Shown in pieces: positions 27,742 to 33,912 of a stretch of DNA of 64,000 nt. The DNA comes from a phage. The position numbers were made by a program, and so were the translations under genes. The stretch is from sequence record PZ452584.1. One strand, written 5' to 3'. Below the pieces are notes generated by a model. That model searched no databases, had not been told where the DNA came from, and was given only the letters and a program-made list of their open reading frames with translations. Positions within the stretch are counted from its first letter, which is position 1; every line of letters starts with the position of its first letter.

Positions 27742-29835
27742 TTATCCTTGAACGAACTTGTAAGGCATGTTTGTAATATCTATGCAAGACGCAATAATTC
27801 CAAGAGATGATTCTACTTTCTGTTTAACATTTGATGAAACAAATGATGCAAAGTCAACTCTGTCTTCTACTTCAATATCACCTGTCATTGCAACTACTTC
27901 GCCGGTTTCCATTAGACGGTCGCCGTCATAAATTACCGATTCGGTGAGTTCTTCCGTAGTCATAACTTCAGCTTGAATGAGTTTTGTATTATTAGATGTT
28001 GTTCCGTCATTATTAGAAGCATCAGTTATTTTATTAACTTTGACCATCAATCCGCGCGGTAGAATAACTTCAGCTTCTGTTGCTATTCCGAGACTTCCTG
28101 GATATACAACATTAACTTTATGAGCTCCATCAATTGCCCATCCTATTTGAACTTTAACGTATTCAGGATTTTCTTTATACGCTCTTATTTCGTTTGGATT
28201 AATAGTTATTCCTTCTTCATTTTTATCAACTGTCAATTCATTACGAGCTTCTGGTTCTAAAAGACCAATACCAGCATGTGTAATTCCAAAACGTCCAAAA
28301 ATGATAGGAGTTAAAGAAGTAGATACAAAATTTCTGAAATAGAACACTTTATTTTTAACTAGTGCTTCGTATATAGGAGCAGTCATACTTTGAGCACGAT
28401 AAACTGTGATGCCTTCCGGTATGCGGTCACCATTTTCAAAAGCTGAATCTAAGTTATTTATAGCAGATTCAATTTCTTTTTCACTCATTACATCATATCG
28501 TTCTGGATTGTAACGACCTAAAAGAAGATTATTGATGTCTGTATATCCTGAACCACAATACTCTCTAATGCCGCGCTTTTGTGATGGAGTATATTTAGAA
28601 CCATCACGGGCAATAGTAATATCAATCATTGGACCTGCACCAATTCCGGAAAAACTATAAATCATTCGTTTGAGGAATTTAGTTTTTGCCGCATTCCAGG
28701 CATTTTTAGTTATTTCTCCCCAGACTTCATCTGACTGCCCTTTACGAGTTTTATTATGTTTATCAAGCCAATTATCTTTGTATTCTTCAAAGAATTTATT
28801 AACAGCTGCTGCGTATTTCTCTAAACATTTTATTGAAGTAGTTGGTTCATTTTTGATTGCGTTAAAAATTACATCTTTAATTTTTTCTGAAACTTCATCA
28901 ACCTCACTTTTTGAAAAGAATTTATAGTCATAGTGAAGTTCATTCGCAGTTCCTTCGGCAATAATTTTTGCTGCCTTAGTTTTAGAAGCTAATGAATTAA
29001 TTCCAAGCTTCATTTCTTCTGCTTCGGGAATTAAAGGAGCGGTAGCAGGTTTATTGAAATTAGCTGCGGTAGATTCATACTTCTGGAATAATTCACTTTC
29101 AAATCTAGAAGATTCCAATGATTGACTTTGCGCAATTGCTCTACGGGAAATTTTAACTTTAACGATTACAGCTTGGTCAGAACGTTTATCATTTTCTTGT
29201 GCAATAGATGCTGCAATTGCCTCATTTTTAGTTACTTGAGCCCCAGTATCTTTATTGATATAAACATCACCGACCTTCGATTCAACTTTAGTAAAGAGCT
29301 CGGTACTAATTTCCGGAACTCCTGGAATGTCTTCTAGTGATGCATTTTTGCGATGTATAAGAATATATGCATACTTTTTATCATAATCCCAGAGTTCCTT
29401 AAGAAGGACGTATCTGCCACCTGAACGACTACGGATAAGTCTATCAGCAATAACTTGAATTTGTCGAGCTTGACCAGCGGTTTTAGACTTAAGAATACGG
29501 AGCATACAGGCATCAATTTTATACTGACGCATAGTTTGCATTGCAACAGTAAAAACTGAATTGATATAATTAATTGGGCTTGGACCAAGACCTTTCAATT
29601 TAGCAATTGAACCTTTAGCAGTTAATGTAAAAGGAACAATATGCATCATTTTATCGCCCATTTTTAAATCGCGATTAGTATCACCTCCAGATGTATAGGT
29701 ACATAAACGAAAGCCTGGTTGTTCAATTGCATCATCAACATGAACTGAAAAAATTTGTGGTATTTTCTTCTTTGGATTTAAGTTTGTAATCGGAAGAGTA
29801 GTATCTTCGTCAAATAATTCTGTAATGAGTTCCAT
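27742..29835 (-). CDS. alt: Alt ADP-ribosyltransferase (capsid-packaged, modifies host RNA polymerase)
   Basis: 697 aa from ATG 29835; N-terminus MELITELFDEDTTLPITNLNPKK; R-STS-EAE motifs; minus-strand late promoter at 29859. Confidence 0.93.
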   Translation of the reverse strand: MELITELFDEDTTLPITNLNPKKKIPQIFSVHVDDAIEQPGFRLCTYTSGGDTNRDLKMGDKMMHIVPFTLTAKGSIAKLKGLGPSPINYINSVFTVAMQTMRQYKIDACMLRILKSKTAGQARQIQVIADRLIRSRSGGRYVLLKELWDYDKKYAYILIHRKNASLEDIPGVPEISTELFTKVESKVGDVYINKDTGAQVTKNEAIAASIAQENDKRSDQAVIVKVKISRRAIAQSQSLESSRFESELFQKYESTAANFNKPATAPLIPEAEEMKLGINSLASKTKAAKIIAEGTANELHYDYKFFSKSEVDEVSEKIKDVIFNAIKNEPTTSIKCLEKYAAAVNKFFEEYKDNWLDKHNKTRKGQSDEVWGEITKNAWNAAKTKFLKRMIYSFSGIGAGPMIDITIARDGSKYTPSQKRGIREYCGSGYTDINNLLLGRYNPERYDVMSEKEIESAINNLDSAFENGDRIPEGITVYRAQSMTAPIYEALVKNKVFYFRNFVSTSLTPIIFGRFGITHAGIGLLEPEARNELTVDKNEEGITINPNEIRAYKENPEYVKVQIGWAIDGAHKVNVVYPGSLGIATEAEVILPRGLMVKVNKITDASNNDGTTSNNTKLIQAEVMTTEELTESVIYDGDRLMETGEVVAMTGDIEVEDRVDFASFVSSNVKQKVESSLGIIASCIDITNMPYKFVQG

Positions 29836-29858
29836 CATATCCTCTCTAGTGTTTATTC

Positions 29859-31536: not shown

Positions 31537-31802
31537 TGTTCATCCTTTAGAGTTTGGTTTACAGCTCTATTATAAATCAATTCATCATTAAGCTCAGGCA
31601 AAGACCTATGATATGTAGTTCTAACTTTATTTCCTTGCATCCAGTGCTTGACGTAAATGAAACCTTGTTCTACGCATTTTTTAAAAATTCGTTCGTCTTT
31701 TTGAGCTCGGAATTCTGGATTGCATCTAAAAAATTGATTTACGTGACCGTAATCACGTGTAGTATTACCTTCATTTTCATAAATAGTGTGAACAACAAAC
31801 AT
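31533..31802 (-). CDS. Hypothetical protein (30.1 position)
   Basis: 89 aa; synteny. Confidence 0.65.
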   Translation of the reverse strand: MFVVHTIYENEGNTTRDYGHVNQFFRCNPEFRAQKDERIFKKCVEQGFIYVKHWMQGNKVRTTYHRSLPELNDELIYNRAVNQTLKDEQ

Positions 31803-32641
31803 TAGAATGCTCCTTGGAAAATATTATCACCACCAGTAGGTCTATTATACAAATACTCTATGCCACCAGGTTTAATATAGTTCCATGTCTGAAACGGATG
31901 TGTCTGATATGGATGATATAGATGATTATAAGGATTAAATCCAGGAGTTCTCCAGGTAGTATTCCAAGGAAAAGAATCGTTTTTGATCATCTTCTCAATT
32001 ACATCTTTTATAACTTTTTCACTATCAAAACTTTCTTTATTTTCCTTCGATGGAAAAAGCTTATTCTCTACATCATTCCATGTATAAACTCGCTGCGCAG
32101 TTTTTGGAATACTGTCACGCTCCCCTCGAGCCATCCAATAAACAGGAACATTTAATATTTCACTCGCATGATCGCAGTGGTGAGCGAGATCGTCAATATA
32201 ACAAATTACGTTATATTTCTCTTTTGCCTTTTTGAACAACTCTTCTTTTGAAGAATCATGACCACACATCAATACTTCTGAGAAGGCACCAGGAAAAAGA
32301 GCATTCAAATTAAATTGACGATTCAGCAGAGCGTCAATAGAATCACCCAATGCTGTAACAGCTACAAAATTATAATCTTCTTTTAATTTGTTAATTACAC
32401 ACAGGGCATCTTTATACGGAGACAAGTAACGAATAAAATCTGAACGATTGTATTTTTCAATTAACTTGACGCCAAGTTCTTCGTCACAATTAAAGAGTTT
32501 ACCTGGAGAAATAAATTTCTCATCTTGGATCATTTTTAAAATATGTTCTAACGGAAGATTATATTTCTGAGCAAAATAAGGAAGGCCTGATTGCCAGCTT
32601 AAACATACTCCATCAATATCAGTTAAAATAGTAGGCTTCAT
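31802..32641 (-). CDS. HAD-superfamily hydrolase-like protein (30.2 position)
   Basis: 279 aa; N-terminal DxDG motif ILTDIDGVC. Confidence 0.75.
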   Translation of the reverse strand: MKPTILTDIDGVCLSWQSGLPYFAQKYNLPLEHILKMIQDEKFISPGKLFNCDEELGVKLIEKYNRSDFIRYLSPYKDALCVINKLKEDYNFVAVTALGDSIDALLNRQFNLNALFPGAFSEVLMCGHDSSKEELFKKAKEKYNVICYIDDLAHHCDHASEILNVPVYWMARGERDSIPKTAQRVYTWNDVENKLFPSKENKESFDSEKVIKDVIEKMIKNDSFPWNTTWRTPGFNPYNHLYHPYQTHPFQTWNYIKPGGIEYLYNRPTGGDNIFQGAF

Positions 32642-33102
32642 AGAGAGTCTCTTAATAGGTTTAACACATCAATAAATTCAGCTTCGGTTAGTATTGTATC
32701 ATCTTTTGTTAGACCACTAGCCATGCTGTGCTTCAAAACTTTTCCTTTCGAGGCTAGTAATGCATCACGAAAGCCCTTGTTTTGAATCGCTGCTTCAAAA
32801 TATGCATTTGTGTATAATTCTTTCCACGCTGTGGAGTATCTTGAAAACGGAACTCCAAGCCAGAAGAGGGTCCCACGGTCCTGAGCTCTAGCATAAGACC
32901 TTCCAGCTTGTTGGGCGGCAAGCCCGGATAACCCAAATACACGACGTTGTTGTTCAACATTTTTCACCTTGCATCCTTGGAGGAATCCTTCAAGACCTCC
33001 AAATTGAATACCATCCATGACGAAAGGCCATTGGGCAAAATTACTTAATGCGCATGATGGCCATCTAAAATTGCTTCTAATCTCTAACTCAGACATTTTC
33101 AA
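32638..33102 (-). CDS. NADAR / YbiA-family protein (30.3 position)
   Basis: 154 aa; LSNFAQWP...DG...EGFLQGCK resembles E. coli YbiA core FSNFAAWP...DG...EHYFQAQK. Confidence 0.75.
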   Translation of the reverse strand: MKMSELEIRSNFRWPSCALSNFAQWPFVMDGIQFGGLEGFLQGCKVKNVEQQRRVFGLSGLAAQQAGRSYARAQDRGTLFWLGVPFSRYSTAWKELYTNAYFEAAIQNKGFRDALLASKGKVLKHSMASGLTKDDTILTEAEFIDVLNLLRDSL

Positions 33103-33295
33103 TACTTATAATTTCAACATCAGCCCAATGACCATAGCAAGGAAGACGAAATTCAACTGGCCAGTTAGGGTCCTTTTCTAATATAATAGACTTAACTTGC
33201 GGTTCTTCGTGTTCATCAGTATACGGATTTTTATCTGTTACTTTATATGTTACCTTAATGTACTGAATTCCAAAAATCTTATTAATTATATTCAT
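33089..33295 (-). CDS. Hypothetical protein (30.4 position)
   Basis: 68 aa ORF. Confidence 0.6.
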   Translation of the reverse strand: MNIINKIFGIQYIKVTYKVTDKNPYTDEHEEPQVKSIILEKDPNWPVEFRLPCYGHWADVEIISIENV

Positions 33296-33859: not shown

Positions 33860-33889
33860 AACTTTGTGCAATCTTTGGAAAATAAAAAA

Positions 33890-33907
33890 GGACTCCCGAA
33901 GGAGTCC
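33890..33907 (-). terminator. Intrinsic terminator after 30.7
   Basis: GGACTCC-TTCG-GGAGTCC plus U6 on minus strand. Confidence 0.7.
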
Positions 33908-33912
33908 TCAAC

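Follow-up and report, generated by a model that had tools for sequence, protein, structure and literature searches.

Gene 30.3 of the T4-like genome analysed here encodes, with a probability of about 0.9, an ortholog of the T4 anti-DarT factor AdfN that reverses DarT1 guanine-ADP-ribosylation on phage DNA, and the adjacent gene 30.2 encodes, in the same reading, an independent NT5C-type HAD phosphatase placed outside the anti-DarTG1 mechanism. The DNA under study (the window) is the whole stretch of 64,000 nt from the phage sequence record PZ452584.1. The AdfN ortholog would be an "orphan antitoxin", a stand-alone N-glycosidase with the NADAR fold that is made early in infection and hydrolyses the bond between ADP-ribose and guanine placed by the host DarT1 on phage DNA; the removal of ADP-ribose would restore replicable DNA and, in turn, phage growth on DarTG1 hosts, and the enzyme would be inactive on thymine-ADP-ribose (DarTG2). 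gp30.2 would be a HAD phosphatase that depends on Mg and belongs to the 5'(3')-deoxyribonucleotidase (NT5C) type, with a C-terminal tail that is disordered and varies between lineages. Its substrate in phage nucleotide metabolism is most likely a nucleoside or deoxynucleoside monophosphate, or another small phosphoester of this kind.

That AdfN is active, necessary, and sufficient, and what E36, K43, and the C-terminal helix contribute to it, was established by others in T4. The orthology, fold, conserved residues, and intact allele of the window protein and, for gp30.2, the HAD fold with its motifs and the affinity to NT5C are results of the present analysis, and the activity of the window allele and the identity of the gp30.2 substrate are deduced.

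Genomic Context

The window belongs to a Tequatrovirus (T4-like) genome. On the minus strand, between 27.7 and 36.4 kb, its ORFs reproduce the T4 block alt - alt.1 - 30 (ligase) - 30.1 - 30.2 - 30.3 - 30.4 - 30.5 ... 31 - cd, in which the order 30.4-30.3-30.2-30.1-30 is that of the T4 reference annotation, and the 2-kb stretch around 30.3 and 30.2 shares 97-98% identity with many Tequatrovirus genomes. Due to this gene order and identity, the two ORFs flagged in an earlier note on this DNA, which lie between the DNA ligase gene (30) and 30.4, are recognized as 30.3 and 30.2 (Table 1). Both are conserved genes and not chance ORFs, since tblastn gave matches to gp30.3 in 1,511 phage records and, for the domain of gp30.2, in 1,456. 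The earlier note had placed the 279-aa gene upstream of the NADAR gene; the adjacency is correct, but in transcription order 30.2 is downstream of 30.3. As read from the sequence, the stop codon of 30.3 and the start codon of 30.2 share an ATGA, and the same is true of T4.

At 33888-33909 (minus strand), upstream of the tightly packed 30.6-to-30 block, there is a strong hairpin of the terminator type (GAGGACTCC-TTCG-GGAGTCCTT) with a T-run behind it, and the transcription unit of adfN may begin here. In the scan for promoters and terminators, promoter-like sites were about as frequent as by chance (19 vs 17.6 expected). At the other side of the block, the alt ORF (27742-29838, minus strand), encoding the Alt ADP-ribosyltransferase, is 698 aa long in the window, and that of the T4 reference has 682 aa (2,049 nt).

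Table 1. Coordinates in the window of genes 30.4, 30.3, and 30.2 and of their relevant elements.
Feature	Position	Strand	Basis or remarks
Gene 30.4 (68 aa), next to adfN on its upstream side	33089..33295	-	ORF call, T4 annotation; stop overlaps adfN start by 8 nt
Gene 30.3 = adfN (anti-DarT factor NADAR), 152 aa from ATG	32638..33096	-	148/152 identical to T4 gp30.3
Codons E36 to K43 (EGFLQGCK), with the Glu and Lys catalytic in NADAR	32968..32991	-	Conservation, YbiA alignment, published E36A/K43A
Codon H123, histidine defining the phage gp30.3 NADAR clade	32728..32730	-	Invariant in 80 homologues
AdfN C-terminal helix, residues 138-152, intact	32641..32685	-	Model helix 138-151; no indel vs T4
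Internal out-of-frame ORF 30.3', 68 aa (75 aa in T4)	32754..32960	-	T4 annotation
ATGA overlap of 30.3 stop and 30.2 start	32638..32641	-	Translational-coupling-type junction; found in T4 as well
Gene 30.2, 279 aa, HAD-superfamily phosphatase with variable tail	31802..32641	-	270/279 identical to T4 gp30.2; PHROG 420, E 1.5e-92
NT5C-like catalytic domain (residues 1-195), HAD with a helical C1 cap	32057..32641	-	
gp30.2 C-terminal extension, residues 196-279	31805..32056	-	Helix 207-220, then aromatic/Pro/Gly-rich predicted-disordered part, ending GIEYLYNRPT

The adfN Allele of the Window

The earlier note had described gene 30.3 as a 154-aa ORF at 32638..33102. The ORF is present on the minus strand, and its length probably needs correction: position 33102 is the mechanically called TTG start, and an ATG lies two codons past it at 33096. 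This ATG is probably the true start since T4 annotates 30.3 as 459 nt and 152 aa and the published numbering of E36 and K43 fits only this codon; the likely coding sequence is therefore the 152-aa one. In this numbering, the motif previously noticed as LSNFAQWP...DG...EGFLQGCK is found as LSNFAQWPFVMDGIQFGGLEGFLQGCK at residues 17-43.

The window protein aligns with T4 gp30.3 without gaps over the full length (148/152 identical, 97%), and the four differences, written from window to T4 (V53I, T89P, L114Q, and M125I), are conservative or semi-conservative, none of them being at a conserved catalytic position. At the DNA level the alignment with T4 is ungapped through the stop codon, and the frameshift of the RB69 type is absent. 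In the structural model, the last beta-strand covers residues 120-122 and is directly followed by H123, and residues 138-151 form a helix. The protein appears to be a functional ortholog of AdfN, with an activity that is predicted from the 97% identity.

The internal ORF 30.3' is identical to that of T4 at 66 of its 68 positions and is shortened by a single substitution, CAA to TAG, which corresponds to Q114 to L in the adfN frame. Because this change removes seven codons of 30.3' and alters only Q114 to L in adfN, selection on the full-length 30.3' product is weakly disfavoured.

Membership of gp30.3 in the NADAR Superfamily

The earlier note had proposed a NADAR/YbiA-like identity and named a match to the NADAR profile as the check. 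The identity holds and the direct match, technically, does not: in the direct Pfam search gp30.3 has a single match, PF08010 Phage_30_3 (E 1.4e-69), PF08719 NADAR is not matched at E<=1, and direct sequence searches of NCBIfam and the PDB with gp30.3 retrieve no NADAR match. Pfam models the phage clade separately; the missing PF08719 match is a boundary of the database and not a biological criterion.

The assignment of gp30.3 to the superfamily is due to its fold, which is the YbiA fold of NADAR proteins, to the conserved catalytic residues, and to bridging sequences. In particular, 16 of 80 members of the gp30.3 family match PF08719 (best E 1.5e-7), and JGI labels several gp30.3 homologues YbiA/DUF1768. 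The top PDB sequence match of the gp30.3 family profile is YbiA (E 0.012), with E36 paired with E48 and K43 with K55; none of the 80 homologues deviates at E36 or H123, and the conservation of K43 among them is at least 90%. The charged position at the last strand distinguishes the subfamilies, being Glu in YbiA, Asp in BC4488 (DarG1-type), and His in the phage clade (PMC11543638, PMC11125620), whose members, the "gp30.3 proteins", are in fact set by this histidine (PMC11125620). The window protein carries the last-strand histidine, the orthology to T4 and the corresponding gene position, and the full length with the C-terminal helix, and it is thus placed in the phage gp30.3 clade as an AdfN.

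NADARs of the gp30.3 type that are 31-39% identical to the window protein are present, too, in phages classified outside Straboviridae, in Pootjesviridae and Ackermannviridae. In Rhizobium phage RHph_N34 (L007, 4004-4468) and Ralstonia phage RSP15 (L008, 3995-4513), the NADAR gene is found in tRNA-rich or head-gene surroundings and has no gp30.2 homologue nearby.

Published Function of T4 AdfN and Relation to Known NADARs

The anti-DarTG1 role of 30.3 is already known, published, and independently replicated. Johannesman et al. [quoted passage not shown] Upon deletion of adfN, T4 and T2 fail to form plaques on DarTG1 hosts, and adfN alone complements the deletion mutants (PMC11825919). RB69 is sensitive to DarTG1 and its own copy is frameshifted, with the loss of the last 15 residues and of the C-terminal helix; ectopic adfN rescues this phage (PMC11825919). 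E36A, K43A, and C-terminal truncation each reduce the function of T4 AdfN, and the purified protein strips ADP-ribose from DarT1-modified DNA, an activity that the E36A mutant does not have (PMC11825919). Cihlova et al. (Toxins 2024) reported that the T4 enzyme removes guanosine-ADPr and not thymidine-ADPr in vitro (PMC11125620), and AdfN has no effect on DarTG2 (PMC11825919). In an independent T4 transposon screen, insertions in 30.3 were lost on DarTG1 (log2FC -7.25, adjusted p 0; bioRxiv 10.1101/2025.11.20.689424); in minimal medium they left fitness unchanged (log2FC 0.12).

The view of the earlier note that a NADAR enzyme counters DarTG by de-ADP-ribosylation of guanine is therefore right for DarTG1, which modifies guanine, with the proof obtained on the 97%-identical T4 protein, and it does not extend to DarTG2, which modifies thymine (PMC11825919, PMC11125620, bioRxiv 10.1101/2025.11.20.689424). 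In cells without infection, T4 AdfN fails to neutralise DarT1, and it gives hardly any rescue of T5 or Bas25 (PMC11825919, PMC11125620). For this reason the known mechanism of AdfN is incomplete and calls for a T-even-specific factor or context; its discoverers propose such a T-even factor (PMC11825919).

The window protein shares with T4 AdfN the length of 152 aa, E36, K43, H123, the intact C-terminal helix, and the place between 30.4 and 30.2, and it differs in the four non-catalytic substitutions; all the experiments concern the T4 allele. DarG1-type NADAR antitoxins (the BC4488 family, with the NADAR of G. lovleyi, 8bat, and that of E. coli C7) have Asp where the phage enzyme has His at the last-strand catalytic position. 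They are paired with DarT1, whereas the phage AdfN is an orphan whose neighbours are 30.4 and 30.2 and is not a member of this type; AdfN works like DarG1 outside any toxin-antitoxin pair, but is unable to take the place of DarG1 when the cells are uninfected. The identity of the phage enzyme to E. coli YbiA (2b3w) and the NADAR of P. nicotianae (8bau) is about 20%. In YbiA, whose described role is the damage control of riboflavin intermediates, a Glu occupies the position of the phage-clade His.

gp30.2, an NT5C-like HAD Phosphatase

The HAD DxDG motif attributed to the 279-aa protein by the earlier note is confirmed at the start of the ORF, MKPTILTDIDGV, with D8, D10, and G11. The protein is 97% identical to T4 gp30.2 (270/279), and HAD motifs I-IV are conserved in 58 gp30.2 homologues, in which D8, D10, K132, D150, and D151 show no variation and the conservation of T96 is at least 90%; the two Asp and the Lys of the motifs are also kept in 87 distant relatives. 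The DxD pair indicates a phosphatase rather than a dehalogenase. The model is confident for residues 1-195, a Rossmannoid HAD core with a C1 cap, and for the helix 207-220.

Both structure and family profile lead to the same enzyme. Foldseek ranks first the mouse cytosolic 5'(3')-deoxyribonucleotidase (2jao, E 4.3e-8), with many cdN/mdN enzymes in the top 50, and 2jao is also the sole PDB sequence match of the gp30.2 family profile, in which DvDGvlvkWqSgL pairs with NMDGVLADFESGL. Neither gp30.2 nor most of its close homologues reach the Pfam thresholds (NT5C is matched by 5 of the 58), direct PDB and NCBIfam searches with gp30.2 give only noise-level matches, and a word-indexed profile search with its domain retrieves only close phage homologues. 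An exhaustive HMMER search collected 1,369 representatives at E<=1e-3. The distant relatives are linked to the phage gp30.2 family by hhalign (E 7e-58), and the Pfam scan of 87 of them assigned 42 to NT5C (best E 4.2e-10), 16 to HAD_2, and 15 to generic Hydrolase.

gp30.2 is thus a real HAD phosphatase, which is called NT5C-like and is not filed as a member of NT5C (PF06941) because it lacks a direct Pfam match and only 5/58 close homologues have one. From sequence and model, its NT5C-like character makes a nucleotide substrate plausible. The literature search found neither a publication nor biochemical data for gp30.2. A generic HAD phosphatase acting on sugar phosphates or small molecules, similar to phosphoglycolate phosphatase or beta-phosphoglucomutase and not a nucleotidase, is possible at clearly lower odds. 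As a predicted nucleotidase, gp30.2 shares with the cdN/mdN enzymes the HAD core with a helical cap, the DxD followed by DGV..aromatic..SGL, and the Lys and DD motifs; it differs in the low identity (14-21%), in the extra, largely disordered tail of 84 residues, and in having an activity that is predicted.

The tail begins after the HAD domain, and its residues 225-279 have a pLDDT <50 and are predicted to be disordered. A tail of at least 40 aa past the domain is present in 60 of 123 gp30.2 homologues and is absent or unrelated in about half. An EYLxxxPT-type motif occurs in 19 of the 60 long-tailed homologues, and several unrelated tail types are found, e.g., ...GTGIEYLNRQPT..., ...LLNKVTANDS..., and ...DLRAYY.... 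The tail resembles an extension for docking or regulation that evolves quickly.

Are the Neighbouring Genes Involved in the Anti-DarTG1 Function?

Only two T4 genes, 30.3 and 30.4, were significantly depleted under DarTG1 in the T4 screen, and for 30.4 the values were a log2FC of -1.79 and an adjusted p of 0.014 (bioRxiv 10.1101/2025.11.20.689424); insertions in 30.4 were neutral in minimal medium (log2FC -0.05, T4 transposon screen). As the stop codon of 30.4 overlaps the start of adfN by 8 nt, the depletion is most simply explained by a polar effect on adfN. The same depletion would also fit an improbable reading in which gp30.4 is a phage-specific partner of AdfN, so that the real anti-DarTG1 module is 30.4-30.3 and not 30.3-30.2. 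No gp30.4 homologue was detected beside gp30.3 in eight distant phages, a result that is neutral on a helper role. In a weaker variant, gp30.2 would be a conditional counter-defence nucleotidase directed against a system not yet screened.

Still less probable is that 30.3 and 30.2 form a two-enzyme module in which NADAR frees ADP-ribose from DNA and the HAD enzyme processes a product derived from it, both against DarTG. The ATGA overlap, the adjacency of the genes in T4-type phages and in Acinetobacter Lazarusvirus phages and their near-adjacency in Slopekvirus, the similar numbers of phage records and host distributions, and the reported need of T4 AdfN for a T-even factor would fit such a module. 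However, T4 30.2 insertions are not significantly depleted under DarTG1 (log2FC -0.12, p 0.61, 71 TA sites; bioRxiv 10.1101/2025.11.20.689424), and adfN by itself is sufficient for the complementation described above. The gene is, moreover, non-essential on K-12, where 72/72 TA sites carry insertions, and neutral in minimal medium, with a log2FC of -0.10 (T4 transposon screen).

Synteny was examined in eight distant phages that carry gp30.3, by searching for a gp30.2 homologue within 4 kb. Two of them have such a homologue: in Acinetobacter phage KARL-1 it directly neighbours gp30.3, and in Klebsiella phage Miro two small ORFs lie between the genes. None was detected within this distance in the other six (Phi1, Aes508, Melville, Vibrio K567, Rhizobium N34, and Ralstonia RSP15); in Phi1, 30.3 directly abuts the ligase gene. 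Because six of the eight have no nearby gp30.2, the adjacency in T4-like phages appears to be synteny inherited with the ligase-31 block and not a partnership within an operon.

That gp30.2 could be the T-even factor needed by AdfN was also considered, and was rejected on the HIDEN-SEQ DarTG1 data and the partial synteny; the screen data exclude gp30.2 as a required non-essential factor of AdfN. The transposon neutrality of 30.2 holds for the tested conditions and leaves room for a role elsewhere. The suggestion of the earlier note that the HAD neighbour acts on a related nucleotide-derived substrate is therefore retained for the HAD identity and the plausible nucleotide substrate; a joint action with NADAR is not supported, due to the lack of a DarTG1 phenotype of 30.2 insertions and the partial linkage.

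Other Roles Proposed for gp30.3

An earlier bioinformatic proposal by Iyer et al. (2022), based on gene context and on the co-occurrence with Macro, Nudix, and SLOG domains, would have gp30.3 mainly degrade soluble immune signals or by-products derived from NAD+ or ADP-ribose and not DNA adducts. The inability of AdfN to detoxify DarT1 in uninfected cells is in its favour, as de-ADP-ribosylation of DNA alone leaves this part unexplained, but the E36-dependent removal of ADPr from DNA in vitro (PMC11825919), the specificity for DarTG1 of the phenotype in deletions and in the transposon screen, and the lack of a 30.3 phenotype among the other screen conditions examined make it highly improbable. 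A YbiA-type housekeeping N-glycosidase acting on intermediates of the riboflavin pathway, with no role in defence, is practically ruled out, since gp30.3 shares the YbiA fold but has His where the YbiA subfamily has its defining Glu, and the published T4 data, with DarTG1-specific genetics and unaffected insertions in minimal medium, have already effectively refuted it.

Biological Significance

The contribution of the window to the AdfN reading is one more intact adfN allele only. For the T-even phages, the screen data point weakly to 30.4 as the T-even factor behind the ability of AdfN to work only in T-even infection. gp30.2 is a widespread, phage-restricted NT5C-like phosphatase, found in about 1,450 phage genomes and without a Pfam family. 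AdfN itself is a clear case in which a phage has captured an enzyme similar to an antitoxin and uses it to reverse a modification of DNA made by the host.
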